Source: an uncultured Bacteroidales bacterium (GTDB lineage Bacteria > Bacteroidota > Bacteroidia > Bacteroidales > UBA11471). Taken from it: a stretch of DNA of 64,000 bases. The stretch covers positions 71,254-135,253 of the forward strand of contig CANQDQ010000004.1 in the NCBI GenBank assembly GCA_947593515.1, in the 5' to 3' direction. The position numbers and the translations under genes are program-made. Under the pieces are notes generated by a model. It had not been told where the DNA came from. It ran no database searches and saw only the letters and a program-made list of their open reading frames with translations. Shown here one piece after another: positions 3,154-52,823 of the stretch; position 1 is the first letter of the stretch; the number at the start of each line of letters is the position of its first letter.

Positions 3154-4635
3154 ATGGCAACAGAATTGAAAGACCTGACCAAACGCAGCGAAAACTATTC
3201 GCAGTGGTACAACGACTTGGTGGTGAAAGCCGATTTGGCGGAGCAGTCTGCCGTGCGCGGCTGCATGGTGATAAAGCCTTACGGATACGCGATATGGGAA
3301 AAAATGCAGCGGCAGCTCGACGATATGTTCAAGGAAACGGGGCACGTCAATGCCTATTTCCCGCTGCTCATTCCGAAATCGTTTCTGAGCCGCGAAGCCG
3401 AACACGTGGAAGGTTTTGCCAAAGAGTGCGCCGTGGTAACCCACTACCGCCTGAAAACCGCCTCCGACGGTTCCGGCGTCGTGGTCGATCCCGCCGCCCG
3501 CCTCGAAGAAGAGTTGATTATCCGCCCCACGTCGGAAACCATTATATGGAGTACGTATAAAAACTGGATACAGTCGTACCGCGACCTCCCCATACTCTGC
3601 AACCAATGGGCAAACGTCATGCGCTGGGAAATGCGCACCCGCCTTTTCCTGCGCACCGCCGAATTTCTCTGGCAGGAGGGGCACACCGCCCACGCCACCC
3701 GCGAAGAGGCGGAAGCCGAAGCCGTGAAGATGCTCAACGTCTATGCCGACTTTGCCGAAAACTACATGGCGATGCCGGTAATCAAAGGCGTGAAGTCGGC
3801 GAACGAACGTTTTGCCGGCGCCGTCGAGACCTACACCATCGAAGCCCTGATGCAGGACGGCAAGGCGTTGCAGTCGGGCACGTCGCACTTCTTGGGACAG
3901 AATTTCGCCAAGGCTTTCGACGTGCAGTTCGTCAATAAAGACAACCAGCCCGAATACGTATGGGCGACCTCGTGGGGTGTATCGACCCGTCTGATGGGCG
4001 CGCTTATCATGTCGCACTCCGACGACAACGGTCTTGTGCTGCCGCCGAAGTTGGCGCCGATACAGGTCGTCATCGTGCCTATCTATAAAAATGCCGAGCA
4101 GCTGGCGAAAATCGACGAGAAAGTCGCCGGCATCGTTGCCCGCCTCAAAGAGCTGGGCATATCGGTGAAATACGACAACGCCGAAAATAAACGTCCGGGA
4201 TTCAAATTCGCCGATTACGAACTGAAAGGCGTTCCCGTGCGCTTAGTCATGGGCGGACGCGACCTCGAAAACAATACTATCGAGGTGATGCGCCGCGATA
4301 CGCTCGAAAAAGAGACCCGCACCTGCGACAACATCGAACAGTACGTCAAGGAGCTGCTCGCCGACATACAGAAAAACATCTACCGGAAAGCCTTCGATTT
4401 CCGCGCCGCCAACATTTTCAAAGTCGATACCTACGACGAGTTCAAGGAGCAAATCGAAAAAGGCGGATTCATCTTGGCGCACTGGGACGGTACGCCCGAA
4501 ACCGAAGAGCGCATCAAGGACGAAACCAAAGCCACCATACGCTGCATACCGTTGGAGGGCGACACCACGCCGGGCAAATGTATGGTAACCGGCAAGCCGT
4601 CGGCTCGCCGCGTACTCTTCGCCCGCGCGTATTAA
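3154..4635 (+). CDS. proS: Proline--tRNA ligase (archaeal/eukaryote-like class IIa form)
   Basis: 493 aa. N-terminus [35 protein letters not shown] and class II motifs ([26 protein letters not shown]) are typical of Bacteroidetes ProRS. Confidence 0.93.
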
Positions 4636-4663
4636 AAAACGCTGTCTGAATAAAATAGAAAAG

Positions 4664-4702
4664 CGCCCGAAAGTTCTCACGACTTTCGGGTGCTTTGTTT
4701 TT
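4664..4702. terminator. Bidirectional rho-independent terminator between proS and the CE8-like gene
   Basis: Stem 4664-4674 (cgcccgaaagt) pairs with 4682-4692 (actttcgggtg) across a 7-nt loop. It is followed by a T-run and preceded by an A-rich run. Confidence 0.7.
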
Positions 4703-4719
4703 CCGAATAGGGCGGTACG

Positions 4720-6294
4720 TCAATGTTCGGGATTCCACTCCAAAATCTGTGCGGGCGAACGGTACATATCGATGAGGGCGGCATCGTCGGGCAGCGTGAG
4801 CTGTCTCGACAATTCGTGCCGGCGGCTCACATCGACGGGGCGACCCTCTTTGTCGGTGCTGTTGTATTCCAAGAAACGCAGGTGGTGCGTTTCGCCGCGT
4901 ATATCTACCCACCCCTCCGGCGATATATTTTCGAGCGTGCAGTCTATCAGCACGGCTTCGGCGTAGGGATAGCCGTTTACGCCCTTGTTCACCGGCGAGC
5001 GGGCTATCGCCGCATTTCCATGCGTGCCCACGAAGCGGCAGTTATTGAAAATATTGCCGTGATTGGCTTCGGTGTTGCGTATCCACATGAAGGGTCCCGG
5101 ACTTATCAGCAGGCAGTTTTTGAAAAACGACGGTCCGCGACCGAGTATCATGTCGCCGCCGCCGTCGATGATGCAGTCTTCAAGATATACGGAGCCGTTG
5201 ATTTGCAGGGCGTCGCCCGAGCCGATGACTTTGACGTTGCGCAGGTAGTTGCGTGCCCCCATGATTAAAAGCCCCTCCGCCTGTCCGTGCAGGTCGGTTT
5301 TGATAGTCAGGTCTTCAAAGCGGAGGTCGTAGCAGTTGTCGGCTGCAAACGCGGCGCGGCGCGACGGAAACGTGCCTCGCCATTCGTTGGTCTTTACATT
5401 GATGGGGTGGGGGTTGAAAGTTTCGTTGTTGGCATAGTGTACCACCGTCTTTTCCCGACTTTCGCCGTGCAGCAGCACGTGCTGTTTGTTGCGGAAGTAA
5501 ACGAGTTCTTCGTAATCGCCGTTTTTGATAAACACTTCCCAATTCTCTTGGCTGAAATCGGGAATGAAATCCATCGCCCCCTGCACCGTGCAGAAGTCGC
5601 CGCTGCCGTCGCCGCTTACGACGAGCCGGCGTTGGTCGGCGGCAGGAGCGTTTTTACGGGTGGAGAAGCGCCACGCCTTTTCGCCGTAGATGCCGGCAAA
5701 CATCTCGCCCTCGATGCCGAAAGCCTCTCGGTCGATAGTAACGTAATACTCCTTGTCGTATTCGAGCAGATTGTGGTGCGGGTACAGCGTAACGCGATTG
5801 TCGTGCGCTATGGCGGGATAGAAGTGGAAACCGTCGGTGAAGTGTCCGATAATGGTGAGCTGATACGGACCGGTGGTGTCGCGCACCGCCGTGCCCGACG
5901 GTGTGCCGGGCACCGTGTTGGCGTTGGTGCAGTCGGTCGATTCATACACATACGGCACAGCCGTGTAGGTGGCGTTCTGTTTCCGTATCGTGTCGGGTTG
6001 CGTGGGACCGGCGGGTATGCTCAGGTCGAGCGAATCGACGAGCTGTCCGCTGCCGGCTTCGTAGATGCGTATCATGCCTTTGTCGTTCACGGTTACAGGG
6101 GCATTGAATGTCAATGTGAGGTGCGTGTCGGGGGCGACACCTTTGGCACGGTTGGCGGGGAACAATCGGTAATGGGCGGTTGTCGCCTCCGCCGGCGCGC
6201 TTGCTCCCGACGTGGCGTCGGTCGCCGCATTTTGTCCCGAGAGGCTGCCTGCCGCACCCGACAGCAGCAGAAGGGGGAATAAGAGTTTTTTCAT
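4720..6294 (-). CDS. Pectinesterase-like (CE8-like) protein with an N-terminal Ig-like domain
   Basis: Signal peptide MKKLLFPLLLLSGAAGSLSG (start moved to the ATG at 6294). GDYEELVYF matches CE8 motif GxYxE. The later blocks GSGDALQ and GGGDMILGRG align to QDTL and VDFIFG, with both Asp residues retained. Confidence 0.6.
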   Translation of the reverse strand: MKKLLFPLLLLSGAAGSLSGQNAATDATSGASAPAEATTAHYRLFPANRAKGVAPDTHLTLTFNAPVTVNDKGMIRIYEAGSGQLVDSLDLSIPAGPTQPDTIRKQNATYTAVPYVYESTDCTNANTVPGTPSGTAVRDTTGPYQLTIIGHFTDGFHFYPAIAHDNRVTLYPHHNLLEYDKEYYVTIDREAFGIEGEMFAGIYGEKAWRFSTRKNAPAADQRRLVVSGDGSGDFCTVQGAMDFIPDFSQENWEVFIKNGDYEELVYFRNKQHVLLHGESREKTVVHYANNETFNPHPINVKTNEWRGTFPSRRAAFAADNCYDLRFEDLTIKTDLHGQAEGLLIMGARNYLRNVKVIGSGDALQINGSVYLEDCIIDGGGDMILGRGPSFFKNCLLISPGPFMWIRNTEANHGNIFNNCRFVGTHGNAAIARSPVNKGVNGYPYAEAVLIDCTLENISPEGWVDIRGETHHLRFLEYNSTDKEGRPVDVSRRHELSRQLTLPDDAALIDMYRSPAQILEWNPEH

Positions 6295-6315
6295 GGTAAT
6301 CTTACAGTTAGACCA

Positions 6316-6323
6316 CAAATCTA
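6316..6323 (-). promoter_or_regulatory. -7 box TAgaTTTG for the CE8-like gene
   Basis: Plus-strand caaatcta is minus-strand TAGATTTG, 22 nt upstream of the ATG at 6294. It lies inside the tracked ORF extension, which supports the shorter start. Confidence 0.45.
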
Positions 6324-6391
6324 TAAAATATCTTTTGAATGAAAAAGAAAATTTGCGGAAAAAGAATTATCTTTAACCCCGTGTAAACGAC

Positions 6392-7684
6392 ATGAAAAAT
6401 CCTTCGCTGAAATCGGGCTTTCGAGCACTGGCGCCGCTGGCGGTATTCTTGGGCGTATATCTGGTGGCGTCCGTGTGGATTAATGATTTCTACGCCGTAC
6501 CCATTACGGTGGCGTTCATCATCGCCTCGGCGGTGGCTGTCGCCCTGACATCGGGCATACCGCTTGCCGAGCGCATAGTCCGTTTCTCAGAAGGCGCTGC
6601 CGACAAGAATATTCTTATAATGATATGGATATTCGTGCTGGCGGGAGCTTTCGCGCAGTCGGCAAAAGCGATGGGCGCTATCGACGCCACCGTGCAGCTC
6701 ACGCTCCTGCTATTGCCCGAACACTTTCTGCTCGTGGGAATCTTCATCGCCGCCTGTTTCGTTTCGCTTTCGGTAGGTACGTCGGTGGGCACGATTGTCG
6801 CGCTCGTGCCCGTCGTGGCGGGACTGGCGGAAAAAACGGGCATCGACCCCGCTTTCATGACCGCCGTAGTCGTGGGCGGCGCATTCTTCGGCGACAACCT
6901 GTCGTTCATTTCCGACACCACCATTGCGGCGACCCGCACGCAGGAGTGTGAGATGCGCGACAAATTCCGCGTGAATATCCTTATCGTTTTGCCGGCAGCC
7001 CTGCTTCTGTTGGTTTATTATACCGTAACGGGTTACTCCCTCGAACTGAATGCCGTCGATACTGCGCCGGTGGAATGGGTGCGCGTGCTGCCCTATCTCG
7101 TGGTGCTGTTTACGGCGCTGGCAGGCATGAATGTCATGGCGGTGCTGGCGCTGGGCATACTCTCGGCGGCGGTGGTTGGAATGCTTTCGGGCGGTTACGG
7201 CATTTTCGACTGTCTGAAAGCGATGGGCGAGGGCATTACCGGTATGGGCGAGCTGATTATCGTTACCCTGCTGGCGGGCGGTATGCTCGAATTGATACGC
7301 TACAACGGCGGCATGGATTTCATCATCTCCCGCCTGACGGCGCACGTGTCGTCGAAACGCTGGGCGGAGGCAAGTATCGCCGCGCTGGTGTCGCTGGCGA
7401 ATCTCTGTACCGCCAACAACACGATAGCCATCATCACCACCGGTTCCATAGCCCGCGACATCAGCCGCCGCTTCGGCATCGACCCGCGCAAGACGGCGAG
7501 CATACTCGATACGTTTTCGTGCGTCGTGCAGGGGTTGATTCCTTACGGGGCGCAGCTGCTCATCGCTTCGGCGTTGACGCAGCTCTCTCCGCTCGCGATT
7601 ATCCGTTACCTCTATTATCCGCTTTTGGTGGCGGTGTGCGCATCGGCAGCGATTTTCTTCCGTTACCCCCGCCGCTACTCCTGA
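6392..7684 (+). CDS. nhaC: NhaC-family Na+/H+ antiporter
   Basis: 430 aa, polytopic. NhaC-type blocks IWIFVLAGAFAQSAKAMGAIDA and GGAFFGDNLSFISDTTI. Confidence 0.8.
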   Translation: MKNPSLKSGFRALAPLAVFLGVYLVASVWINDFYAVPITVAFIIASAVAVALTSGIPLAERIVRFSEGAADKNILIMIWIFVLAGAFAQSAKAMGAIDATVQLTLLLLPEHFLLVGIFIAACFVSLSVGTSVGTIVALVPVVAGLAEKTGIDPAFMTAVVVGGAFFGDNLSFISDTTIAATRTQECEMRDKFRVNILIVLPAALLLLVYYTVTGYSLELNAVDTAPVEWVRVLPYLVVLFTALAGMNVMAVLALGILSAAVVGMLSGGYGIFDCLKAMGEGITGMGELIIVTLLAGGMLELIRYNGGMDFIISRLTAHVSSKRWAEASIAALVSLANLCTANNTIAIITTGSIARDISRRFGIDPRKTASILDTFSCVVQGLIPYGAQLLIASALTQLSPLAIIRYLYYPLLVAVCASAAIFFRYPRRYS

Positions 7685-7785
7685 TTTTCGGAAACTCCTT
7701 GCAGAGGCTTGTTCCGACCCTTTCGTCAATAAAAACGAACCTTATATTTAATAGAAATTCCTATAAATTTATTTCGGATATTTTG

Positions 7786-7793
7786 TAACTTTG
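7786..7793 (+). promoter_or_regulatory. -7 box TAacTTTG ahead of the pgpA-led four-gene operon
   Basis: Exact TAnnTTTG match 20 nt upstream of the ATG at 7813. Confidence 0.5.
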
Positions 7794-7812
7794 CGCATTC
7801 GTTTCATTTGAT

Positions 7813-8313
7813 ATGTCCGGCATGAACGACGATTCGCGTGTGCGCCCTCCATTCTTTCCACTCTTTATAGCCACCGGCTTCGGTGCGGGCTATTCGCCCG
7901 TAGCGCCCGGTACGGCAGGTGCGCTGGCGGCGGTGCTGTTGTGGGCAGTCGCCGCTCTGTTCGTGCCGTTTGCCGTGTTGCAGGCGACGTTGGCTGCGGT
8001 CGTGGTGCTGTTTACGGCGTTGGGCGTATGGTCGGGCACGGTGATGGAACGCTATTGGGGCGAAGATCCGTCGAAGGTCGTCGTAGATGAAATGGTAGGC
8101 GTGTGGATTCCCTTGCTTGCCGTACCCGAGAATTACGGGCTTTTCTACGCCCTCGCGGCGTTTGTGCTTTTCCGCTTTTTCGATATCGTGAAACCGCTCG
8201 GCGTGCGCCGCATGGAACGCTTCAAAGGCGGGTGGGGCATTATGGCGGACGATATTCTGGCGGGAGTGTACAGCGCGATATTGTTGGTCGCCGCCTGTTT
8301 TATACTGCATTAG
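7813..8313 (+). CDS. pgpA: PgpA-family phosphatidylglycerophosphatase A-like phosphatase
   Basis: TGFGAGYSPVAPGTAGAL, VVDEMVGVW and FRFFDIVKP ... GWGIMADDILAG are canonical PgpA blocks. Confidence 0.85.
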   Translation: MSGMNDDSRVRPPFFPLFIATGFGAGYSPVAPGTAGALAAVLLWAVAALFVPFAVLQATLAAVVVLFTALGVWSGTVMERYWGEDPSKVVVDEMVGVWIPLLAVPENYGLFYALAAFVLFRFFDIVKPLGVRRMERFKGGWGIMADDILAGVYSAILLVAACFILH

Positions 8314-8315
8314 AT

Positions 8316-8792
8316 ATGACGAAACGCACAGGCATACAGTTGTTGAAAGCGCTTTTCTCCGCGCAGTTGTCAGGGTTGGTCGATTTTCTGACCTCCTTTC
8401 TGTTGGCAAACGTTTGTCATCTCTATTACGTGGCATCGACATTTCTCGGGGCGCTAACCGGCGGCGTGTTCAACTGCTGCCTCAATTACCGGTGGGTATT
8501 CCGCGCCGCCGGCTGTTCCAAAGCACTCGTGGCGATAAAATATGCCATGGTGTGGGCGGGCAGCATTTTTTTCAACACTTACGGAACGTATCTGCTCACC
8601 GAAGTTATGATGCGCACGGCGTGGGCAGCCTCGTTGAGTGCATACGGTGCGACCAACCTTTTCCTCCTGCCGAAAATCATCGTCGCCCTTTTGGTTTCCC
8701 TGTTTTGGAACTTCCTGTTACAACGCAATTTCGTCTATCGGAACACGGCGTTCGATACGTTCATTCTCTTGCATTGTCATCATTCAAAATAG
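8316..8792 (+). CDS. GtrA-family membrane protein
   Basis: The internal ATG at 8316 lies 2 nt after the pgpA stop. Four TM helices and the GtrA-like ends GLVDFLTSFLL ... FWNFLLQRNFVYR. Confidence 0.7.
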   Translation: MTKRTGIQLLKALFSAQLSGLVDFLTSFLLANVCHLYYVASTFLGALTGGVFNCCLNYRWVFRAAGCSKALVAIKYAMVWAGSIFFNTYGTYLLTEVMMRTAWAASLSAYGATNLFLLPKIIVALLVSLFWNFLLQRNFVYRNTAFDTFILLHCHHSK

Positions 8793-8798
8793 ACCGGT

Positions 8799-9458
8799 AT
8801 GAAATATAGAGATTTTCTGCAAAAACTCATTTATAAAGTCATCGACCCCGTTGTCAAAGGTATGATAAAAGTCGGTATCACGCCCAACTTCATCACGACG
8901 ACAGGTCTGCTGTTGAACATCGTGGCGGCTGCGACTTTCATTTATGCCGGATACGCCGGCGCCGATGCCCTCCGGTATGTAGGTATAGGCGGCGGAGTGG
9001 TGCTGTTTGCCGGACTGTTCGATATGCTCGACGGTCGGGTGGCGCGTGTGGGCAACAGGGTATCGCGCTTTGGCGCTTTTTACGATTCGGTGCTCGACCG
9101 GTACAGCGAGCTGTTCACCCTCTTCGGCATTATCTTTTTCCTGATGCTCAAAGGGTACGTGGTGTGGGCGATTGTCGCTTTCGTGGCGTTGATAGGCTCT
9201 ATCATGGTAAGCTACGTGCGGGCGCGAGCCGAAGGGTTGGGACTCGATTGCAAAGTGGGTTTGATGCAGCGCCCCGAGCGTGTCGTGCTCACCGCGCTCG
9301 GTGCCATTTTCTGCGGCGTATTCGCTCATATCGAGGCGTTCGACCCCGTGCTGATTTTGGCGGTGCCGCTGGCGCTTATCGCCCTGTTGGCTAATGCGAC
9401 GGCTTTCGTGCGCATCGCCCATTGCCGCCGGTTGTTGAAAGATAAAAAACAAGAATAA
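8799..9458 (+). CDS. CDP-alcohol phosphatidyltransferase (candidate phosphatidylinositol-phosphate synthase)
   Basis: Signature D-G-x2-A-R-x8-G-x3-D-x3-D seen as [30 protein letters not shown]. The substrate assignment rests on gene context only. Confidence 0.8.
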
Positions 9459-10387
9459 TGCGATATACTCCTCCTTCTCGCAAAGAATCGACGGTGATGC
9501 TGCTCGTGGCGGCAGTGTCGCTTGCCCTTACCGGCATATTCATCGGATTGCGCCCCGAACATATTTTCCTTTGGTCGCTTTTCTGCATACTCTTTTTTGC
9601 TTCGACTTACACTCGCAAGCTGATTGTCGCCCTGCTGCCGTTTGTCCTTTTTGCCATATCGTACGACTGGATGCGGGTCTATCCCAATTATCGGGTGAAC
9701 GCTATCGACGTTGCAGGTCTTTACGGGGCTGAGTTGCAAGTGTTCGGCGTTACTGTCGAGGGTGTGCGAATGACCCTTTGCGAATATTTCGCGCAGCACC
9801 ATTGCGCCGTGCTCGATTTCATGGCAGGAATTTTTTATCTCTGCTGGGTGCCGGTGCCGGTGCTTTTCGGCGTGATGCTTTATGTGCAAGGGCGCCGCGA
9901 ACTGGCGTTGCGTTTTGCTCTGACTTTTCTGCTGGTCAATCTCATCGGCTTTGCCGGCTATTACATTCACCCTGCCGCCCCGCCGTGGTATGTCATGGAG
10001 TACGGATTCGAGCCGCTGCTTGGTACACCCGGCAATGTGGCGGGACTCGGTCGTTTCGATGCGATGTTGGGAATCGATGTGTTTTCTCCTATGTATGGTC
10101 GTAACGCCAATGTGTTCGCCGCCTTTCCTTCGCTGCATTCCGCCTATATGCTGGTGGCATTTTTCTATGCTCTTGCAGGTCGCTGTCGCAAATGGCTTGT
10201 CGCTCTGTTTGCTTTTATCATGGTCGGAATATGGTTTACGGCAGTCTATTCGGGACACCATTATATGATAGATGTATTGGGTGGAATCGTATGTGCTGCC
10301 GTCGGAATCCTGCTCTTTGAACAAGGGCTGATGCGCATTCCCGCTTTTCGCCGTTTCTTTGCCCGTTACGTCGCTTACGTGTCGTAA
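9458..10387 (+). CDS. PAP2-superfamily membrane protein, inositol-phosphorylceramide-synthase-like
   Basis: The start ATG overlaps the upstream TAA by 1 nt (TAATG). PAP2 C2/C3-like motifs FPSLHSAY and SGHHYMIDVLGG resemble the sphingomyelin/IPC-synthase HYxxDV block. Confidence 0.7.
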   Translation: MRYTPPSRKESTVMLLVAAVSLALTGIFIGLRPEHIFLWSLFCILFFASTYTRKLIVALLPFVLFAISYDWMRVYPNYRVNAIDVAGLYGAELQVFGVTVEGVRMTLCEYFAQHHCAVLDFMAGIFYLCWVPVPVLFGVMLYVQGRRELALRFALTFLLVNLIGFAGYYIHPAAPPWYVMEYGFEPLLGTPGNVAGLGRFDAMLGIDVFSPMYGRNANVFAAFPSLHSAYMLVAFFYALAGRCRKWLVALFAFIMVGIWFTAVYSGHHYMIDVLGGIVCAAVGILLFEQGLMRIPAFRRFFARYVAYVS

Positions 10388-10406
10388 TCGTTGGCGGATA
10401 AAATAA

Positions 10407-10444
10407 AACAGGGTCGGCAAAATTTTTTGCCGACCCTGTTTTGC
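10407..10444. terminator. Bidirectional rho-independent terminator
   Basis: Perfect 16-bp arms aacagggtcggcaaaa / ttttgccgaccctgtt, flanked by A- and T-runs, between convergent genes. Confidence 0.8.
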
Positions 10445-10457: not shown

Positions 10458-11468
10458 TTATTTGTTCAGTGCGGTAGCCACATCGACGGCACAGGCCACG
10501 GTGCAACCCACCATCGGGTTGTTGCCGATGCCGAGAAATCCCATCATCTCTACGTGAGCGGGAACGGAGGACGAACCGGCAAACTGGGCGTCGCTGTGCA
10601 TACGTCCCATCGTGTCGGTCATACCGTAGGACGCGGGACCGGCAGCCATGTTGTCGGGGTGCAGGGTACGACCCGTACCGCCGCCCGAAGCAACGGAGAA
10701 ATAGGGCTTGCCGGCGAGAATACGCTCTTTCTTGTACGTACCGGCTACGGGGTGCTGGAAGCGGGTGGGGTTGGTGGAGTTGCCCGTAATGGAAACTTCC
10801 ACGCCTTCGTGCCACATGATGGCGACACCTTCGCGCACGTCGTCGGCGCCATAGCATTTTACTTTGGCGCGCGGTCCGTCGGAGTAAGCGATTTCACGAA
10901 CGATTTTGAGTTCGCCCGTATAGTAGTCGAATTGCGTCTGTACGTAGGTGAAGCCGTTGATGCGCGAAATGATTTGGGCAGCATCTTTTCCTAAACCGTT
11001 CAAGATGCAGCGCAACGGTTCTTTGCGCACCTTGTCGGCTTTGGCGGCGATTTTTATGGCGCCTTCGGCAGCGGCGAACGATTCGTGTCCGGCGAGGAAA
11101 GCGAAGCATTTCGTTTCTTCGCGGAGCAGACGAGCGGCGAGGTTGCCGTGTCCCAGTCCCACTTTGCGGTCGTCGGCTACCGAGCCGGGTATGCAGAATG
11201 CCTGCAAGCCGATACCGATGGCTTCGGCAGCATCGGAGGCGTTTTTGCAGCCTTTTTTCAGGGCAATGGCAGAGCCTACCACGTAAGCCCATTTGGCATT
11301 TTCGAAACAGATAGGCTGCGTATCTTCACACGTTTTGTAAGGGTCGAGACCGTAGCTGTCGCAGATGGCGTTGGCTTCTTCAATATCTTTGATGCCGTTG
11401 GCGTTCAGCGCAGCGATGATTTGTTTGATACGGCGATCTTGGCTTTCAAATTTCACTTCTCTTATCAT
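10458..11468 (-). CDS. GGGtGRT-family protein (uncharacterised conserved family)
   Basis: 336 aa. The eponymous motif SVASGGGTGRTLHPDN is at residues 262-268 (DNA about 10665-10685). Confidence 0.85.
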   Translation of the reverse strand: MIREVKFESQDRRIKQIIAALNANGIKDIEEANAICDSYGLDPYKTCEDTQPICFENAKWAYVVGSAIALKKGCKNASDAAEAIGIGLQAFCIPGSVADDRKVGLGHGNLAARLLREETKCFAFLAGHESFAAAEGAIKIAAKADKVRKEPLRCILNGLGKDAAQIISRINGFTYVQTQFDYYTGELKIVREIAYSDGPRAKVKCYGADDVREGVAIMWHEGVEVSITGNSTNPTRFQHPVAGTYKKERILAGKPYFSVASGGGTGRTLHPDNMAAGPASYGMTDTMGRMHSDAQFAGSSSVPAHVEMMGFLGIGNNPMVGCTVACAVDVATALNK

Positions 11469-11480
11469 AGTCTGTCCTCC

Positions 11481-12182
11481 TTATTCTTTGCGTGGGTCAA
11501 TGTATTTAACGGCTCCCGCCTCTTTCGTAAAGCGACCATAAGTGCCGGTAACTTTTTTCAGGGCTTCGTTGGCATCGGTGCCTTTCTTGATTTCTTCCAT
11601 GAATTTTCCCAGATGTACGAATTCATACCCGCACACTTCGTCGTTTTTGTCGAGGGCGAGGGTTTTGATGTAGCCTTCCGCCATTTCGAGGTAGCGCGTG
11701 CCTTTGGCGAGCGTGCCGTAGAGCGTGCCCACTTGGCTGCGGAGCCCCTTGCCGAGGTCTTCGAGACCGGCGCCTATCATCAGACCTCCTTCGGAGAATG
11801 CCGACTGCGTGCGACCGTAAACGATTTGCAGGAAGAGTTCGCGCATGGCGGTATTGATGGCGTCGCATACGAGGTCGGTGTTCAACGCTTCGAGCAGTGT
11901 TTTGCCCGGCAGTATTTCCGATGCCATGGCGGCGGAGTGGGTCATACCCGAGCAGCCGATGGTTTCTACCAGCGCCTCTTGTATGATACCGTCTTTTACG
12001 TTGAGCGTCAGTTTGCACGCGCCCTGTTGGGGAGCGCACCAGCCGATACCGTGCGTCAAGCCCGAAATGTCGATAATCTCTTTGGCTTTCACCCACTTGC
12101 CCTCTTGGGGGATAGGAGCGGGACCATGGTTGGGTCCTTTCTTTACAACACACATGTGTTCTACTTCGTGTGAATAGATCAT
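11481..12182 (-). CDS. NifU/IscU-N-terminal-like protein (putative Fe-S scaffold-like), partner of the GGGtGRT gene
   Basis: 233 aa, 12 nt upstream of the GGGtGRT gene. IscU-like core GIGWCAPQQGACKLTLNVKDGIIQEALVETIGCSGMTHSAAMASE. Confidence 0.7.
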   Translation of the reverse strand: MIYSHEVEHMCVVKKGPNHGPAPIPQEGKWVKAKEIIDISGLTHGIGWCAPQQGACKLTLNVKDGIIQEALVETIGCSGMTHSAAMASEILPGKTLLEALNTDLVCDAINTAMRELFLQIVYGRTQSAFSEGGLMIGAGLEDLGKGLRSQVGTLYGTLAKGTRYLEMAEGYIKTLALDKNDEVCGYEFVHLGKFMEEIKKGTDANEALKKVTGTYGRFTKEAGAVKYIDPRKE

Positions 12183-17596: not shown

Positions 17597-20500
17597 TTAT
17601 CGGACGATAATCATTTTTTTGCCGTTCACGATATACGCACCGTTCTGTAACGTTTTAAGGGCAGCGGCATCGTTCGTTTCGAGTATCAACACGCCTTGCA
17701 GGTTATACACCGTTATATGTTCGGCATCTTGCTGCGTCTCCGTTACTGCCGACGGGTCGTCCGGATTCTCCGGCTCATCGGGCTCTGCGGGCTCCGGCTC
17801 CGTTATCGTGAAGGTATAAACGAGCTCGGGGTTGCAGTGCCCCACAGTCGGGTCGTCGGCAAAGTCGGCATCGCCGAAGGTGCCTTCGGGTATCGTCAAC
17901 GTGTATTCACCGGCGGCTTTCAGCGTGTCGGCAAGGGTTATTTCGAGCGTATTTCCTTCGCCGGCGGAGAGGGTGGCGGTAAGCAGCGTGTCATTGCCGG
18001 CGAGCGTTATCGTTTGTGCTTCGGCGGCAAGAGCCGGTTTTTCGGTAAAGATAAGGGTAATGGTTTTCAGCGCCTCTACTTCGCTGTTGTCGGCGGGCGA
18101 TGTCGTTGCCGGCTTGAAGTCTTGCACTACCGGCTCTTTTATCGTGTAGGTATAAACGAGTTCGGGGTTGTAGCGTCCTGTCGTTTGGTCGTCGAAGTAG
18201 ATTTCATTACCGAATGCGCCTTCGGGTATCGTCAGCAGATAGTCGCCGGGTTCGGTTACGACGGTATCAGTCAACGATATCGTAAGCGTGCTGTCCGACG
18301 AGGAGACGATGCCGGCGGGGAAGAAAGCCGAGTTGTCGGCTTTCATCAGCGTAGCCGAGTCGCCGACAAGTACCGGTTTTTCATCGAACAGAAGCGTAAA
18401 CTCTGCAAGCTCCGTAACTTCCGCACCGTCGGCAGGCGTTACCCGCGTCGGGATAAAATATTTTCCGGTTGGCGGAACAAATTCCTCTATCGTCCCGAAT
18501 TTTTTCCACCCCGTAGCGGCTTTATAGGCATCTACCGAACCCACAGGTACATACAGTTTACAGGTTTCATAATCCACCCCATCGAAAACGGAAGTCCCGT
18601 TATAAACTATTTTTACCGGCGTCGGGTTATAAACGGTTACCGATTGCAAATTACTGCAACCGTAAAAAGCCTCGTTGCCGATAGTAGCAACACTCTCGGG
18701 TATCGTTATTGACGTCAAACCCTTACAACCGTAAAAAGCATCGTCGGGAATCCGTTTGACATTTTCCCCGATATGTATCGTCGTCAAGGAAGTACAACCC
18801 GAAAAAACAGAACTCATATAGGTGCAGGAATCGGCATTGAAATAAACATCCGTCAAACCCGTACAACCGGAAAAAGCCCTACTCGGAATAGATTTTACAT
18901 TTTCCCCGATATGTACTGTTGTCAAAGAGGTACATTCCTTAAAAACAGAACTCATATAGGTGCAGGAATCGGCATTGAAATAAACTTCCGTCAAACCCGT
19001 GCAATCGTAAAAAGCATAACCACCGATAGTGGCAACACTTTCGGGTATGGTTATCGACGTCAAGCCCGAACAACCGTAAAAAGCATAATCGCCGATTGTG
19101 GCAATACTTTCGGGTATTATTATAGATGTCAAGCCGCTGCAATCTTCAAAAGCACCGTCGCCGATAACTTTAATATCGGCGGATATGGTGTATTCGGTCA
19201 GAGCGTTCGGTGCAAAAGCCACTAACGTATCGTTTACAACAAGACAACGATGATCCGACGATGCCCATTTCCCTTCAAACTCCATCAAACCCGTGCAACC
19301 GGGAAAAGCATTGAAAGGAATATGTTTTACATTTTCCCCGATATGCACCGTTGTCAAAGAGGTACAATCATAAAAAGGAAATCTCATCTCGGTGCAGGAA
19401 TCGGCATTGAAATAAACATCCGTCAAGCCCGTACAACCGGAAAAAGCCCTACTCGGAATAGATTTTACATTTTCCCCGATATGTACTGTTGTCAAAGAGG
19501 TACATTCTTCAAAAACAGAATACATATAGGTGCAGGAATCGGCATTGAAATAAACCTCCGTCAAGCCCGTACAACCGGAAAAAGCATTGTAGCCGATAGA
19601 GGTAACACTATTAGGTATCGTAATCTCTTCTAAACCAACGCAATCTTCAAAAGCCCTGCCCGGAATAAATTTTACATTTTCCCCGATATGCACCGTTGTC
19701 AAGGAGGTACATTCCCCAAAAACAGAATACATATAGGTGCAGGAATCGGCATTGAAATAAACCTCCGTCAAGCCCGTACAACCGGAAAAAGCCCTACTCG
19801 GAATAGATTTTACATTTTCCCCGATATGTACTGTTGTCAAAGAGGTACATTCCTTAAAAACAGAACTCATATAGGTGCAGGAATCGGCATTGAAATAAAC
19901 ATCCGTCAAACCCGTACAACCTGAAAAAGCCCTACTCGGAATAGATTTTACATTCTCTCCAATATGTACCGTTGTTAAAAAGATACAACCCGAAAAAACA
20001 AAATTTATAGGGGAGGTGGTACAGGAATCGGCATTGAACCACACTTCTTCCAAGCCTCTACAATTGGAAAAAGCACGGTCGCCGATAGAGGTAACATTCT
20101 TGGGTATGGTCATCGAAGTCAAACCCGTACAACTGGAAAAAGCATAATCACCGATAGTCGTAACACTCTCGGGTATCGTTACCGATGTTATACCTTTGCA
20201 ACCGTAAAAAGCACGGTCGCCGATAGAGGTAACATTCTCAGGTATGATTATCGACGTCAAGCCGGTGCAACCGTAAAAAGCCTCGTTGCCGATAGAGGTA
20301 ACACTCTCGGGTATCGTTACCGATGTCAAGCCCGAGCAATTCCGAAAAGCATCGTCCGGAATCCGCTTTACATTCTCTCCGATATACACCGTGGTCAATG
20401 CCTTACAACCAGAGAAGCCTCCGCTTATACAGGAATCGGCATTGAAATAAACCTCTGTCAATCCCGTGCAACCGGAAAAAGCAGACCCGCCGATCGATGT

Positions 20501-23500
20501 AACATTCTTGGGTATGGTTATCGAAGTCAAGCCAATACAACCGGAAAAAGCACGGACGCCGATAGAGGTAACATTCTCAGGTATGATTATCGACGTCAAG
20601 CCGGTGCAACCGTAAAAAGCCTCGTTGCCGATAGAGGTAACACTCTCGGGTATCGTTACCGATGTCAAGCCCGAGCAATTCCGAAAAGCATCGTCCGGAA
20701 TCCGCTTTACATTCTCTCCGATATACACCGTGGTCAATGCCTTACAACCAGAGAAGCCTCCGCTTATACAGGAATCGGCATTGAAATAAATCTCCGTTAA
20801 GCCCGTACAATCGTCAAATGCTCCATAGTTAATAGTGGTAACACGCCTCCCTATCGTTACAGACTTCAAGCCACTGCAACCGTCAAAAGCATAACGACCG
20901 ATAGTGGTAACACTATCAGGTATCGTTATTGACGTCAAGCCTCTGCAACCGGAAAAGGCATAATCAGCAATAGAGGTGATATTCGGAGAAAATTCAATGG
21001 AACTCAAATCTTGTCGTCCCCTGAAAATCGAGGGAAAATGGCGTACATTTTTCCCAATATGAATACCGGAAATAGGTATTGTTGTATCGAAAACATAACT
21101 ATAATTGCTAAGATTACAAGAATCGGCATTGAAATAAACATCCGTTAAGCCTGTGCAACCTTCAAAAGCACTGTGGTCGATATAGGTAACACTCTCGGGT
21201 ATCGTTACCGACGTCAAGCCCGTACAATACTTAAAAGCACCGACACCGATAGAAGTAACACTTCCGGGTATCGTTACCGATGTCAAACTGCTGCAATCGT
21301 AAAAAGCCATTTCGCCAATAGTGGTAACGCTCTCAGATATCGTTATTGACGTCAAGCCCGTACAATACATAAAAGCACCGACACCGATAGAAGTAACACT
21401 GTTAGGAATCGTTACCGACGTCAAACCGCTGCAATAACCAAAAGCATAGTCACCGATATTGGTAAGCCCGTTCTGTATTATTACTTCCTTCAAGCCGCTG
21501 CAATTGTAAAAAGCCCTGTAGATAGAAGTAACGCCCTTGGGTATCGTTACCGACGTTAACCCCTTGCACTGAGCGAAAGCCTCTCCGCCAATGGTCGTAA
21601 CGGTCTCAGGTATCAATATAGACGTCAAGCCGCTACATTCGTAAAAAGCGCCGACTCCGATAGAGGTAACACTCTCGGGTATGGTTATCGACGTCAAACC
21701 CGTACAACCGGAAAAAGCCTCGTTGCCGATAGTGGTAACGCTCTCGGGTATCGTTACTGTCGTCAAGTTCCTGCAACTGGAAAAAGCATAGTCGGGAATA
21801 TGTTTTACATTTTCCCCGATGTGGAGGTTTTTTACGGCAGTATTGTAAAAAACATAGCCTCTAATAACGTCCGGCTCTCCCATCTGTCCCATCGGATATC
21901 TAACTTCAATTCCTCCCATATAGCCGCAGGAATCGGCATTGAAATAGACGTCCTGTAAAGCCGTGCAGTGGTCAAATGCATTGACGCCAATAGAAGTAAT
22001 ATTTTTGGGTATTGTAATCGACGTCAAGCCCGTACAACCGTAAAAAGCCGAATCGCCAATAGCGGTAACGCTTTCAGGTATCGTTACCGACGTCAAACTT
22101 GTCCATCCGGAAAATACAGAATTACCGATGGTCGTAAAGTTTTCAGGTATGACAAACTCTGTAAGCGGCTTATTATCCAAATAGAGTGTGGCTCCGTACA
22201 AAAGCGGATTCCCTTTGTTTCCAAATGAAATCCGAAGCCACGCTTCCATATTCGAAATATAGACGGATTTCACATGGCTTTCCTCAAAAGCATTATCACC
22301 TATGGTCGCAATACTCTCGGGTATCGTTATCGATGTTAAACTGCTGCAATACTGAAAAGTACCGACACCGATAGTGGTAACCCCATTGCCTATCGTTACC
22401 GACTTCAAAGCGTTGCAACAATAAAAAGTTGAGTCGCCTATCGAAGTAACACTCCCGGGTATCGTTACCGATGTTATACCTTTGCAACCGTAAAAAGCAT
22501 AATCGCTGATTGTTGTAACGCCACTCGGTATTTTCAGGTCGGTTTCCGGTTTGCCGTTCACATAAACGTTTTTGGCACTAGCTAACGGATTGGCGTCTTG
22601 CCATTCAAAAGAAATCCGGCACCATATTGCCAAATCCGGGATATACACATTTTCCAGATAACAAGACCAAAATGCTCCTCCACCGATAGTTTGAATGCCA
22701 TTACCTATCGTTACCGACTTCAAACCGCGGCAAAAACCAAAAGCACTGCGCCCGATAAAGGAAACGCTATTGGGTATCGTTATTGACGTCAAGCCACTGC
22801 AACCGTAAAAAGCAGAACTACCGATAGAAGTAACACTGTTAGGAATCGTTACCGACGTTAAATCGACGCAATCGTGAAAAGCGTTTTCGCCAATGACCTT
22901 AACGCCATTGGGTATTATTACCGATGTTATACCTTTGGAACCGTAAAAAGCATAACTTCCGATTGTGTCGATTCCTTCGGGAATCGACAATTCGCCGGAA
23001 AGCGGTTCTCCTTTTACATAAAGAGTACTGCCACCATATAGGGGGTTGGATCCTTGATCCACAAACAGAATTTGAAGCCATTTCGCTATATCATGAATAT
23101 GTACAGATTTCGAATTAGTATGAAAAAAAGCACAATCACCGATAGTCGTAACACTCTCGGGTATCGTTACCGACGTTAAACCGCGGCAATAATCAAAAGC
23201 ATGGTCACCGATAGTAGTAACACCGTCCGGTATTGTTAGCGATGTTAAGCTGCTGCAAGAGCGAAAAGCACCGGCTCCGATAGATGTAACACCCTGGGGT
23301 ATGGTTATCGACTTCAAACTGTTGCAACCTTCAAACAAACCGTCGCTGATGGTCGTAATACTCTCGGGTATCGTTACCAACGTCAAGTTACGGCAATCCC
23401 AAAAAGCATAGCGTCCGATAGAGGTAACGCTTTTGGGTATCGTTATTGATGTCAAGGCACTGCAACCGTCAAAAGCAAACTCACCGATAGTCGTAACACT

Positions 23501-24250
23501 CTCGGGTATCGTTACCGACTTCAAACCCGTGCAACCGGAAAAAGCGCTCTTGCAGATAGAGGTAACTTGTTTGCCAATGGTCAACGAAACAAGACCTGTT
23601 TTATTATAGAACGGGGAGGAAGAGATATTCCGTCCCAGATACACCGTATCCAACGGACAAAAGTCAAACATATATACTGTCTCGGGAAAGTTCAATGTTT
23701 CCGTGCCGTCCTCTATTCGGAAATTCTTTAAGTGCGAGCAATATTCAAAAGCTTGCCCTCCGATAGAGGTAACGCTTTTGGGTATCGTTATTGATGTCAA
23801 GGCACTGCAACCGTTAAAAGCAAACTCACCGATAGTCGTAACACTCTCGGGTATTGTTATTGATGTCAAACCCGTGCCGGCAAAAGTACTATTGCCGATA
23901 GTGGTAACGCTATTGGGTATCGTTATTGACGTCAAGCCACTGCAACCGTAAAAAGCATGACTACCGATAGAAGTAACACTGTTAGGAATCGTTACCGACG
24001 TCAAGCTGTCGCAACCAGCAAAAGCATCGAAGCCGATAGCGGTAACCATATATTCGGTTCCGTTATGCGTTACCGTTGCGGGAATGGTTACATCGCCCGA
24101 ATAATCAAGGGAATAAGATTTATACGTAACCTCAACCGTCTTGTTGTCTGACGAAAGAACGTTGTAATAGATACCATCTACCTCGAACGCCCACGCGGCG
24201 GGGGCAGACAGGCATACGGACAACAACATAAAAAACAGTGTGTGTTTCAT
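17597..24250 (-). CDS. Giant (2217 aa) BspA-type leucine-rich-repeat cell-surface protein with two Ig-like modules and a short T9SS-like C-terminal tail
   Basis: Signal peptide MKHTLFFMLLSVCLSAPAAWA, followed by dozens of LTSxTIPxSVTxIGxxAFxxCxx units. Residues about 1930-2150 form two about 105-aa modules ending GEYTLTIPEGTFG...CNPELVYTFTI, then a PE-rich linker. The tail is ITVYNLQGVLILETNDAAALKTLQNGAYIVNGKKMIIVR. Confidence 0.9.
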   Translation of the reverse strand: MKHTLFFMLLSVCLSAPAAWAFEVDGIYYNVLSSDNKTVEVTYKSYSLDYSGDVTIPATVTHNGTEYMVTAIGFDAFAGCDSLTSVTIPNSVTSIGSHAFYGCSGLTSITIPNSVTTIGNSTFAGTGLTSITIPESVTTIGEFAFNGCSALTSITIPKSVTSIGGQAFEYCSHLKNFRIEDGTETLNFPETVYMFDFCPLDTVYLGRNISSSPFYNKTGLVSLTIGKQVTSICKSAFSGCTGLKSVTIPESVTTIGEFAFDGCSALTSITIPKSVTSIGRYAFWDCRNLTLVTIPESITTISDGLFEGCNSLKSITIPQGVTSIGAGAFRSCSSLTSLTIPDGVTTIGDHAFDYCRGLTSVTIPESVTTIGDCAFFHTNSKSVHIHDIAKWLQILFVDQGSNPLYGGSTLYVKGEPLSGELSIPEGIDTIGSYAFYGSKGITSVIIPNGVKVIGENAFHDCVDLTSVTIPNSVTSIGSSAFYGCSGLTSITIPNSVSFIGRSAFGFCRGLKSVTIGNGIQTIGGGAFWSCYLENVYIPDLAIWCRISFEWQDANPLASAKNVYVNGKPETDLKIPSGVTTISDYAFYGCKGITSVTIPGSVTSIGDSTFYCCNALKSVTIGNGVTTIGVGTFQYCSSLTSITIPESIATIGDNAFEESHVKSVYISNMEAWLRISFGNKGNPLLYGATLYLDNKPLTEFVIPENFTTIGNSVFSGWTSLTSVTIPESVTAIGDSAFYGCTGLTSITIPKNITSIGVNAFDHCTALQDVYFNADSCGYMGGIEVRYPMGQMGEPDVIRGYVFYNTAVKNLHIGENVKHIPDYAFSSCRNLTTVTIPESVTTIGNEAFSGCTGLTSITIPESVTSIGVGAFYECSGLTSILIPETVTTIGGEAFAQCKGLTSVTIPKGVTSIYRAFYNCSGLKEVIIQNGLTNIGDYAFGYCSGLTSVTIPNSVTSIGVGAFMYCTGLTSITISESVTTIGEMAFYDCSSLTSVTIPGSVTSIGVGAFKYCTGLTSVTIPESVTYIDHSAFEGCTGLTDVYFNADSCNLSNYSYVFDTTIPISGIHIGKNVRHFPSIFRGRQDLSSIEFSPNITSIADYAFSGCRGLTSITIPDSVTTIGRYAFDGCSGLKSVTIGRRVTTINYGAFDDCTGLTEIYFNADSCISGGFSGCKALTTVYIGENVKRIPDDAFRNCSGLTSVTIPESVTSIGNEAFYGCTGLTSIIIPENVTSIGVRAFSGCIGLTSITIPKNVTSIGGSAFSGCTGLTEVYFNADSCISGGFSGCKALTTVYIGENVKRIPDDAFRNCSGLTSVTIPESVTSIGNEAFYGCTGLTSIIIPENVTSIGDRAFYGCKGITSVTIPESVTTIGDYAFSSCTGLTSMTIPKNVTSIGDRAFSNCRGLEEVWFNADSCTTSPINFVFSGCIFLTTVHIGENVKSIPSRAFSGCTGLTDVYFNADSCTYMSSVFKECTSLTTVHIGENVKSIPSRAFSGCTGLTEVYFNADSCTYMYSVFGECTSLTTVHIGENVKFIPGRAFEDCVGLEEITIPNSVTSIGYNAFSGCTGLTEVYFNADSCTYMYSVFEECTSLTTVHIGENVKSIPSRAFSGCTGLTDVYFNADSCTEMRFPFYDCTSLTTVHIGENVKHIPFNAFPGCTGLMEFEGKWASSDHRCLVVNDTLVAFAPNALTEYTISADIKVIGDGAFEDCSGLTSIIIPESIATIGDYAFYGCSGLTSITIPESVATIGGYAFYDCTGLTEVYFNADSCTYMSSVFKECTSLTTVHIGENVKSIPSRAFSGCTGLTDVYFNADSCTYMSSVFSGCTSLTTIHIGENVKRIPDDAFYGCKGLTSITIPESVATIGNEAFYGCSNLQSVTVYNPTPVKIVYNGTSVFDGVDYETCKLYVPVGSVDAYKAATGWKKFGTIEEFVPPTGKYFIPTRVTPADGAEVTELAEFTLLFDEKPVLVGDSATLMKADNSAFFPAGIVSSSDSTLTISLTDTVVTEPGDYLLTIPEGAFGNEIYFDDQTTGRYNPELVYTYTIKEPVVQDFKPATTSPADNSEVEALKTITLIFTEKPALAAEAQTITLAGNDTLLTATLSAGEGNTLEITLADTLKAAGEYTLTIPEGTFGDADFADDPTVGHCNPELVYTFTITEPEPAEPDEPENPDDPSAVTETQQDAEHITVYNLQGVLILETNDAAALKTLQNGAYIVNGKKMIIVR
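18770..19990. repeat. 138-bp (46-codon) direct repeat units inside the LRR gene
   Basis: The unit encodes FNADSCTYMSSVFKECTSLTTVHIGENVKSIPSRAFSGCTGLTDVY. A 128-bp stretch is identical at 18858-18985 and 19773-19900 (offset 915 bp), and a third close copy lies near 19430-19560. Confidence 0.85.
20206..20790. repeat. 339-bp-period tandem duplication inside the LRR gene
   Basis: 20221-20451 is identical base for base to 20560-20790 (231 bp, offset 339 bp = 113 codons). The protein repeats ENVKRIPDDAFRNCSGLTSVTIPESVTSIGNEAFYGCTGLTSIIIPENVTSIG exactly. Confidence 0.9.
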
Positions 24251-52821: not shown

Positions 52822-52823
52822 AT

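Follow-up and report, generated by a model that had tools for sequence, protein, structure and literature searches.

The closest described system is the BT_1522-BT_1526 cluster of Bacteroides thetaiotaomicron, in which the gene functions were derived from knockouts (Heaver et al. 2022, PMC9246714; Sartorio et al. 2022, PMC8791184). In this cluster a myo-inositol-phosphate synthase (MIPS, BT_1526) lies upstream of genes for a PgpA-like phosphatase (BT_1525), a GtrA-like protein (BT_1524), a PIP synthase (BT_1523), and a PI-DHC synthase (BT_1522). The function of BT_1525 was described in PMC9246714, where its knockout left the other glycerophospholipids unaltered. Knockout of BT1524 decreased IPC and increased PI in one of the studies (PMC8791184) and gave no TLC phenotype in the other (PMC9246714).

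The occurrence of MIPS among carriers of the cluster has also been tabulated (PMC9246714). All the Bacteroides and Parabacteroides genomes with the cluster have MIPS, P. copri is named as an example of a MIPS that is unlinked from it, and Prevotella genomes with the cluster and no MIPS homologue are already on record. Of the 12 Prevotella genomes with homologues of BT_1523, BT_1525, and BT_1522, 8 had no match for BT_1526, and most of these have a match for the MINPP BT_4744 (Supplementary Table 5). Within the Bacteroidales, Tannerella forsythia, which has no inositol synthesis genes, produces inositol phospho-dihydroceramides solely from exogenous inositol, the uptake of which has been demonstrated (Megson et al. 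2015, PMC4587543).

Further relatives are the PIP synthases (PgsA1) of mycobacteria and Renibacterium, which, like the BT-type cluster, go through a PIP intermediate needing a phosphatase, and the yeast IPC synthase AUR1, whose partner is the Kei1 subunit. In actinobacteria, PI feeds PIM/LAM synthesis and not sphingolipids.

Operon Organization

The window, i.e., the whole 64-kb stretch of DNA that was analyzed, contains the following features in and around the operon:

6392-7684, + strand: NhaC-family transporter gene (430 aa; Pfam PF03553 Na_H_antiporter at 4e-25)
7786-7793, + strand: TAACTTTG, putative promoter box of the Bacteroidetes -7 type, matching the consensus, with its end 20 nt ahead of the pgpA start codon
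7813-8313, + strand: PgpA-like gene (166 aa; stop codon TAG at 8311-8313)
8316-8792, + strand: GtrA-like gene (158 aa; ATG at 8316; 2-nt gap after the PgpA-like gene)
8799-9458, + strand: CDP-alcohol phosphatidyltransferase gene (219 aa; 6-nt gap after the GtrA-like gene)
9458-10387, + strand: PAP2 gene (309 aa; its ATG at 9458-9460 shares 1 nt with the preceding TAA at 9456-9458, giving TAATG)
10405-10442, either strand: predicted GC-rich hairpin terminator (17-bp stem with 8 GC pairs, a loop of 4, and a T-tract; A and T runs on either side)

The four genes are co-directional and span 7813-10387, and the ORF coordinates agree with the two short gaps and the 1-nt overlap that had been described for them. 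One metagenome gene caller places the start of the GtrA-like gene 24 nt farther downstream; the packing is tight under both starts. The description of a single box was likewise accurate, as TAACTTTG is the sole TAnnTTTG on the + strand from the stop codon of the NhaC-family gene to that of the PAP2 gene. We infer that it is the promoter box of the operon, its function being read from the consensus alone; the clade relatives L004, L006-L009, and L017 likewise have a box, at −26 to −53. A TAnnTTTG box upstream of pgpA was seen in 2 of the 10 loci with MIPS upstream and in 25 of the 51 others, so the box was not significantly associated with a missing upstream MIPS (Fisher p = 0.16). A sigma-70 promoter scan gave no match, as is expected for Bacteroidetes, and searching all of the window with Rfam gave three tRNAs only, with no riboswitch near the operon. 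The hairpin at 10405-10442 is predicted to be a bidirectional intrinsic terminator situated between the operon and a convergent GGGtGRT gene. The stretch 7786-10442 is a self-contained four-gene operon with its own promoter box and terminator.

Comparison with the B. thetaiotaomicron Cluster

The likeness to the Bacteroides inositol-lipid cluster that the earlier note saw was borne out, since the four genes pair one to one with BT_1525, BT_1524, BT_1523, and BT_1522, and both the gene order and the motifs are alike. The window operon differs from the B. thetaiotaomicron cluster in lacking the upstream MIPS, in the place of which stands the NhaC-family transporter, and in having its own promoter box. 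Also missing is the DUF5686/CarboxypepD_reg neighbor (the family of the BT_1527 homologue according to the paper), which is found in 25 related loci.

The identical four-gene order, with the PgpA-like gene leading the lipid block, was found in 59 of 69 species-representative loci, and such a recurrence of the same genes in the same order is far beyond chance. Among these loci are those of P. coprocola and B. reticulotermitis, both of which are in the published table as carriers of BT_1522, BT_1523, and BT_1525 homologues. The nearest relative of the window organism is the uncultured Bacteroidales Lapin-011 bin66, a MAG of the same species with the accession CANQQA01, followed by Ca. Caccoplasma, UMGS999, and Coprobacter sp. 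MAGs. The exact PAP2 protein occurs on three ENA metagenome contigs only, each no longer than 45 kb. For Barnesiella and Coprobacter, searching the literature brought up nothing relevant on inositol lipids.

The operon genes are under purifying selection, with dN/dS values of 0.04-0.16 against same-species and same-clade relatives, and the catalytic residues, at least 97% conserved among 62-64 orthologues, are all present in the window proteins. Positive selection behind a divergent PAP2 allele was considered and rejected (dN/dS 0.13, with dS raised 3- to 6-fold). We put the probability that the operon is the orthologue of BT_1525-BT_1522 and makes inositol lipids by the pathway outlined below at roughly 85%. 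The activities of the individual enzymes would be those known from B. thetaiotaomicron genetics, by analogy.

Predicted Functions of the Gene Products

The transferase belongs to the Pfam family CDP-OH_P_transf (6e-17), and the motif that had been noticed in it is present and intact (D75-x2-D78-G79-x2-A82-R83...G92-x3-D96-x3-D100); among the orthologues, DX2DGX2AR...GX3DX3D is at least 97% conserved. Against the NCBIfam model NF052561 (PIPSynBT1523) the protein scored 334.6 bits, which is 15 below the curated cut-off of 350 and inside the 309-392 bits obtained for orthologues from the MIPS-linked loci L011, L015, L025, L030, L033, and L037. The scores were 148.8 bits for the archaetidylinositol-phosphate synthase model and 127.2 bits for actinobacterial PIPS, and 35.0 and 22.8 bits for the pgsA models TIGR00560 (cut-off 109.1) and NF008090 (cut-off 304), respectively. 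The best PDB relatives are the PIP synthases of M. tuberculosis, M. kansasii, and Renibacterium (6H53, 6WM5, and 5D92), which have the fold, the motif, and the inositol-phosphate substrate class in common with the window transferase but are only distantly similar to it (E about 1e-20). By model scores and PDB relatives, the transferase groups with the inositol-phosphate-dependent PIP synthases and not with ordinary PgsA; a grouping with PgsA would, according to the earlier note, have spoken against its reading. It is predicted to be the BT_1523 PIP-DAG synthase orthologue, which would convert CDP-DAG and inositol phosphate to PIP-DAG.

The PAP2 protein (Pfam PAP2_3 at 4e-21) contains the reported PSLH227SAY and SGH267H268YMID272V, and its residues H227, H268, and D272 are conserved, as is the HPAAPPWY block. 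With 500.6 bits it passes the cut-off (480) of the phosphoinositol dihydroceramide synthase equivalog NF052609, while a generic undecaprenyl-diphosphate phosphatase model gave 17 bits (cut-off 229). Its sole PDB matches are structures of yeast AUR1 (9VJ3 and 9IVC, 4e-18), to which it can be aligned along some 250 residues that include the PAP2-type H-H-D catalytic motifs and the PAAPPWY block; the bacterial enzyme, unlike AUR1, acts on dihydroceramide. A grouping with generic lipid phosphatases is thus not seen here either, and the scores support the prediction that the PAP2 protein is the orthologue of the phosphoinositol dihydroceramide (IPC) synthase BT_1522.

The PgpA-like protein matches Pfam PF04608 (1e-42) and scores 101.9 bits against the E. 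coli PgpA equivalog NF008288, under the cut-off of 226. As no BT_1525-specific model exists, its assignment draws on the Pfam family and the operon position, by which it is the positional orthologue of BT_1525 and a predicted PIP phosphatase converting PIP-DAG to PI-DAG. As a side observation, the current NCBIfam models, if applied in standard annotation, would already name the key enzymes of the operon.

The GtrA-like protein is a small membrane protein (Pfam PF04138 GtrA_DPMS_TM at 4e-10), and its gene lies between the phosphatase and synthase genes in almost all loci. The earlier note was right about the presence of this embedded gene and mistaken in treating it as an extra, because its counterpart BT_1524, a GtrA-motif protein, is located at this point of the published cluster too (PMC9246714, PMC8791184). 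The protein is probably an accessory factor for the step from PI to PI-DHC and a candidate PI flippase; in the window operon it is the only candidate for an accessory role of the kind that Kei1 has for AUR1.

In the proposed pathway, the BT_1523-type synthase would join CDP-diacylglycerol and myo-inositol phosphate to PIP-DAG, from which the PgpA-like phosphatase would remove a phosphate to give PI-DAG. The AUR1-like PAP2 enzyme would then move phosphoinositol from PI-DAG onto dihydroceramide, yielding phosphoinositol dihydroceramide. The GtrA-like protein would help this last step, perhaps by presenting PI to the active site of the synthase, which would face the periplasm, or by flipping it there. 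Among the roughly 35 ORFs of the window that were scanned with Pfam, there was no SPT-like family that could supply dihydroceramide.

MIPS and the Source of Inositol Phosphate

The window contains no MIPS gene, as had been stated. A tblastn search with a MIPS probe, validated by its matches to the BT_1526 structure 7NWR (E 3e-266) and to Pfam PF07994 and PF01658, gave no match at E ≤ 10 in the 64 kb. The missing adjacent MIPS is of much less novelty than the earlier note implied. Among the 41 loci from related species that have full flanks, no MIPS lies closer than about 8-10 kb in 25, which makes this the majority state among relatives, and the published tables already show it. Several Prevotella (P. 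oralis, P. stercorea, P. buccalis, P. timonensis, and others; Supplementary Table 5, PMC9246714) have homologues of BT_1523, BT_1525, and BT_1522 without a linked MIPS, as does the window. These belong to a different Bacteroidales lineage, and in them MIPS is missing genome-wide by BLASTP, whereas in the window the absence covers 64 kb.

We consider it probable that the genome has a MIPS gene at another location, which is so in P. copri and, so far as can be judged, in Parabacteroides, for which five loci so labelled have no MIPS within about 10 kb. It can be argued from the retention of the PgpA-like gene in MIPS-unlinked loci that the PIP intermediate, and hence the inositol-phosphate substrate, has been kept. 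An unlinked MIPS is not guaranteed, as the 8 of 12 Prevotella genomes with the cluster and no MIPS match indicate. A protein search with the MIPS probe returned more than 8000 matches, and the 120 listed carry no link to an organism.

Possible, and in our view rather doubtful, is that the operon functions in a genome without any MIPS and obtains inositol or inositol phosphate from the host or the diet, whether by means of an inositol kinase, by phytate breakdown of the MINPP type, or by direct import. The lack of MIPS in 64 kb and the MINPP matches of most such Prevotella are consistent with this, and T. forsythia, a member of the Bacteroidales producing the lipid class that is predicted for the window operon, sets a precedent for salvage. 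In other lineages the operon is adjoined by a PfkB kinase and a FucP-like permease, and in the PDB this kinase is most closely related to the myo-inositol kinase TM0415 (E 6e-31; PMC5931981). On the other hand, salvage genes for a PfkB kinase, MFS permease, NTP transferase, or HAD protein were found neither in the window by tblastn (E ≤ 1) nor among the roughly 35 Pfam-scanned ORFs, B. thetaiotaomicron takes in mere traces of exogenous inositol, and all Bacteroides and Parabacteroides genomes with the cluster have MIPS. Moreover, the 64 kb amount to only about 2% of a genome of roughly 3 Mb.

The alternative B. vulgatus-type cluster (NTP transferase, long CDP-alcohol transferase, and HAD protein) was rejected for the window, in which tblastn with the representatives from L045 had no match apart from a chance-level one (E 0.03) to an unrelated HAD gene at 61377-62051. 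A variant recurring in ENA (P0070), looked up in the search for MIPS, belongs to a different study and to an unrelated organism with such an NTP-transferase/HAD cluster.

The upstream neighbor had been called an NhaC antiporter, and the Pfam family was confirmed, although the score against TIGR00931 (73.6 bits) is far under the cut-off of 370. A gene of this family precedes pgpA only in L004 and L006-L009, the immediate clade, and with the synteny so confined a functional link to the operon is unsupported. That the clade-conserved transporter imports an inositol substrate is speculative and very unlikely, and we know of no NhaC-family member that carries inositol compounds.

The least credible readings are two. 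That the operon is a decaying remnant, its substrate supply gone after the loss or separation of MIPS, has the missing MIPS as its sole point and is contradicted by the purifying selection within species and across the clade, by four intact reading frames with conserved catalytic motifs, and by the persistence of the MIPS-unlinked arrangement in L004 and L006-L009 despite dS of about 1.3 or more (near or beyond saturation). That it is an ordinary phosphatidylglycerol operon of PgsA, PgpA, and a generic PAP2 lipid phosphatase could be entertained because the three Pfam families also serve PG synthesis and lipid-phosphate recycling, but it is effectively refuted by the model scores (all below cut-off for the PgsA, PgpA, and undecaprenyl-diphosphate phosphatase models, against 335 and 501 bits for the inositol-lipid models), and PDB relatives that are PIP synthases and AUR1, and the unaltered glycerophospholipids of the BT_1525 knockout (PMC9246714), also speak against it.

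Significance

The window operon is an ordinary copy of a known system in an uncultured gut Bacteroidales, and it extends the characterized operon to an uncultured lineage of animal and human guts. According to PMC9246714, Bacteroidales inositol sphingolipids influence capsule expression, resistance to antimicrobial peptides, and gut fitness in B. thetaiotaomicron. The locus presents the lipid block as an autonomous unit that is separable from MIPS. The wider question is from where the carriers with an unlinked MIPS or with none obtain their inositol phosphate, an unlinked MIPS or salvage being the options, and a lead is provided by the myo-inositol-kinase-like PfkB gene and the sugar permease beside the same operon in several lineages. 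If the lineage of the window organism had no MIPS, its inositol sphingolipids would be nutritionally dependent on the gut environment.

Operon Organization and Enzyme Identities

The ORF list and the sequence bear out the tight packing of four co-directional genes described in the earlier note, with gaps of 2 nt and 6 nt followed by a 1-nt TAATG overlap. The genes, with the Pfam family of each product, and a hairpin behind them are located as follows:

7813-8313, +, pgpA-like gene (PgpA)
8316-8792, +, gtrA-like gene (GtrA_DPMS_TM)
8799-9458, +, CDP-alcohol phosphatidyltransferase gene (CDP-OH_P_transf)
9458-10387, +, PAP2 gene (PAP2_3)
10405-10442, GC-rich 17-bp hairpin with T-tracts on both sides, between the operon and a convergent GGGtGRT gene

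The single box reported before the operon, TAACTTTG at 7786-7793, was likewise found to be the sole plus-strand TAnnTTTG between the NhaC-family stop codon (7684) and the 3' end of the operon. In the window's clade (the related loci L004 and L006-L009) a TAnnTTTG box is conserved 26-53 nt 5' of pgpA. The whole window contains 48 copies of TAnnTTTG (32 ± 6 expected), many of them just 5' of start codons, a placement that fits the Bacteroidetes -7 element. The Rfam scan found no family near the operon.

Against NCBIfam models, the transferase scored 334.6 bits for NF052561 ('PIPSynBT1523'; cut-off 350), 148.8 bits for archaetidylinositol-phosphate synthase (cut-off 180), 127.2 bits for actinobacterial PIP synthase (cut-off 170) and 35 bits for TIGR00560 pgsA (cut-off 109). 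The 15-bit shortfall relative to NF052561 is not meaningful, because orthologues from loci bearing myo-inositol-phosphate synthase (MIPS) score 309-392 bits (L033, 308.8; L037, 316.5; L025, 323.5; L011, 352.6; L015, 358.3; L030, 391.8). The closest solved structure was M. tuberculosis PgsA1 (6H53, 1e-20), and the PIP synthases of M. kansasii and Renibacterium were also matched. With the BT_1523 and inositol-phosphate-type models ahead of the pgsA model, and PIP synthases as the nearest structures, the proposed reading of this protein as a PIP synthase stands. The same is true for the reading of the PAP2 protein as an IPC synthase: it scored 500.6 bits against NF052609 ('phosphoinositol dihydroceramide synthase'), above the equivalog cut-off of 480, and matched only yeast AUR1 IPC synthase among solved structures (9VJ3, 9IVC; 4e-18), with the PAAPPWY, PSLHS and HHYxxD blocks in register. 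The catalytic residues, D75, D78, G79, A82, R83, G92, D96 and D100 of the transferase and H227, H268 and D272 of the PAP2 protein, show at least 97% conservation across 62-65 aligned orthologues, and the window proteins have all of them.

Comparison with the B. thetaiotaomicron Cluster

Knockouts in B. thetaiotaomicron have assigned functions to BT_1526 (MIPS), BT_1523 (PIP-DAG synthase, motif DX2DGX2AR...GX3DX3D), BT_1525 (PgpA-like PIP-DAG phosphatase) and BT_1522 (phosphoinositol dihydroceramide synthase), and BT_1524, in the middle of the cluster, is a GtrA-motif integral membrane protein without a TLC phenotype (Heaver et al. 2022, PMC9246714). Gene for gene and in the same order, the four window genes thus correspond to BT_1525-BT_1522. 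The likeness to the Bacteroides inositol-lipid cluster had thus been rightly read, on NCBIfam, PDB and collinearity evidence, and the operon belongs to a characterised system, of which it is an ordinary example. The GtrA-like gene, previously seen as a puzzling embedded extra, is instead a regular cluster member and the counterpart of BT_1524.

The GtrA family is linked with the translocation of lipid-linked sugars, and the active site of AUR1 lies on the non-cytoplasmic side. In a BT1524 mutant IPC was down and PI was up (Sartorio et al. 2022, PMC8791184). Based on this phenotype, the family association and the homology of the synthase to AUR1, the GtrA-like protein would deliver or flip PI to the synthase. 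The PIP-DAG intermediate is very likely retained, since the transferase groups with inositol-phosphate-dependent enzymes and the PgpA-like phosphatase is kept in MIPS-unlinked loci. It is also very likely that the operon requires inositol phosphate, not free inositol.

Related Loci and Selection

Searching one genome per GTDB species for the PAP2 protein yielded 69 loci. The best match, L004, is from a rabbit-gut MAG ('uncultured Bacteroidales Lapin-011 bin66') with DNA about 95.5-96.6% identical over 16 kb and flanking proteins 96-100% identical (most 99-100%); judged by sequence, the two organisms are conspecific or sister species. The next-nearest relatives, at 73-74% PAP2 identity, were a Coprobacter sp. 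MAG, UMGS999, Ca. Caccoplasma intestinavium and two other uncultured MAGs, one of which is a complete 2.85-Mb chromosome. Of the 69 loci, 59 keep the order PgpA, GtrA, transferase, PAP2; five of the other ten are truncated at contig ends. Variant blocks also occur: the transferase is missing from L044, where PgpA, GtrA and PAP2 leave no space for it, the GtrA-like gene from L059 and L060, and PgpA from L064 and L070, although 7-9 kb of upstream sequence is present in the last two.

For the three genes with dS estimable in every comparison, dN/dS against L004, L007 and L009 was 0.04-0.16; gtrA had no non-synonymous changes relative to L004, and its dS was saturated against L007 and L009. Purifying selection acts on the operon; it is not a decaying remnant.

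Divergence between the window and L004 peaks locally in the PAP2 gene (9458-10387; L004 10001-10927), with 72-90% nucleotide identity in 200-nt windows, 86% amino acid identity and a dS of 0.67, compared with 96-99% nucleotide identity and a dS of 0.10-0.22 in the flanks. Its dN/dS of 0.13 points to an imported allele, not to positive selection. Relative to the window, L001 and L002 show 100% identity from about 8645 on and only about 95-98% upstream (compared over 4648-8644), a shift that places a recombination breakpoint inside the operon. Between the ProRS and pectinesterase genes, L001, L002 and L004 have (at about 3600-5260) an additional gene of roughly 1.5 kb that the window lacks (4636-4720); its call in L001 and L002 is for a 435-aa product that weakly matches Por_Secre_tail.

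In Muribaculaceae-type loci (L033, L041, L045 of Duncaniella muris, L047, L048, L050, L052 and L053) the BT-like four-gene block stands side by side with an 'alternative' cluster of NTP transferase, long CDP-alcohol transferase, HAD hydrolase and an ATP-grasp-like gene. In L065, which also has the alternative genes, the sequence breaks off within the BT-like block. Loci of this type often have no MIPS within 10 kb.

Other Features of the Window

Further features were observed in the window:

1-855, -, second ORF with a signal peptide near-identical to that of the 2217-aa protein below, running off the window start
10458-12182, -, GGGtGRT-family protein (PF14057, 4e-191) paired with a NifU-like protein, convergent to the operon and 95-100% conserved across the clade
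17597-24250, -, BspA-type leucine-rich-repeat surface protein of 2217 aa, with 16 LRR_5 stretches, a C-terminal Big_5 domain and codon GC3 below that of its neighbours
51648-53750, -, low-GC island (GC3 0.25-0.35 vs. about 0.7 elsewhere) that encodes an N6_N4 DNA methylase along with two further ORFs matching no Pfam family, probably acquired as a restriction-modification or defence unit

Source of Inositol Phosphate

As the earlier note had stated, the window lacks MIPS: a probe from L011, which matches Pfam PF07994/PF01658 and the BT_1526 crystal structure 7NWR at 3e-266, had no match at E ≤ 10 across the 64 kb. With this probe, MIPS was found near the operon in 16 and not in 25 of the 41 loci having at least 8 kb of upstream and at least 9 kb of downstream sequence, and the Bacteroides-type arrangement, MIPS directly 5' of pgpA, occurs in 10 loci only. 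An upstream NhaC-family gene is common to the clade of the window (L004, L006-L009), and MIPS is not nearby there. Across all loci, the TAnnTTTG box was not significantly associated with MIPS unlinking (p = 0.16). A protein search with the probe gave more than 8000 matches.

The unlinked state is common and already documented, P. copri being a case named in the literature. Supplementary Table 5 of Heaver et al. lists a MIPS hit in all Bacteroides and Parabacteroides genomes bearing the BT-like cluster. Of the 12 Prevotella genomes there that have BT_1523/25 homologues, eight are without such a hit: P. phocaeensis, P. oralis, P. stercorea, P. nanceiensis, P. buccalis, P. multisaccharivorax, P. 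timonensis and P. albensis. BT_1522 is also present in these eight, P. albensis excepted, and most have a homologue of the phytate-degrading enzyme MINPP (BT_4744) (PMC9246714).

Two irregular MIPS arrangements were observed. In L030 (Bacteroides reticulotermitis JCM 10512) the upstream MIPS (6969-8188) matches in two pieces, 6969-7724 and 7721-8188, with a 4-nt overlap at a frame shift, which suggests a frameshift or draft-assembly error. Phocaeicola coprocola apparently has two MIPS genes, a 66%-identity copy 3' of the operon (L025 12194-13483) and the 83%-identity protein P0114, NCBI-named for the same species.

We consider an unlinked MIPS the probable source of inositol phosphate for the operon, with a probability of about 60%. 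Salvage is a distinctly less likely source. T. forsythia makes inositol phospho-dihydroceramides from exogenous inositol only (PMC4587543), and a PfkB kinase adjoins the operon in nine loci (L025, L040, L051 and L057-L062). In four of these it lies merely 12-89 nt 3' of the PAP2 gene, in the following regions:

L057, 10989-13259, PfkB kinase region beside the operon
L059, 9227-11378, same
L060, 10933-13101, same
L062, 1405-4092, same

A FucP-like MFS permease accompanies the kinase in eight of the nine loci, the exception being L061, where the contig ends just past the kinase. In the PDB the kinase is most similar to T. maritima TM0415 (6e-31), with T. kodakarensis MI3K (TK2285; 2e-6) a weaker match; both are myo-inositol kinases (PMC5931981). 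The motif of the kinase beside the operon is GCGD, not the PPi-type RXGRGD. No MIPS was found in the fetched flanks of seven of the nine loci. By homology and gene context, kinase and permease look like a candidate inositol import-and-phosphorylation module able to stand in for MIPS; we found no discussion of it in the cited inositol-lipid literature. The module is, however, absent from the window, and the window ORFs scanned contained no MINPP, inositol kinase, sugar permease or NTP-transferase families, which speaks against salvage here. No serine palmitoyltransferase-like families were found among these ORFs either. The residual novelty of this operon lies in the source of its inositol phosphate.
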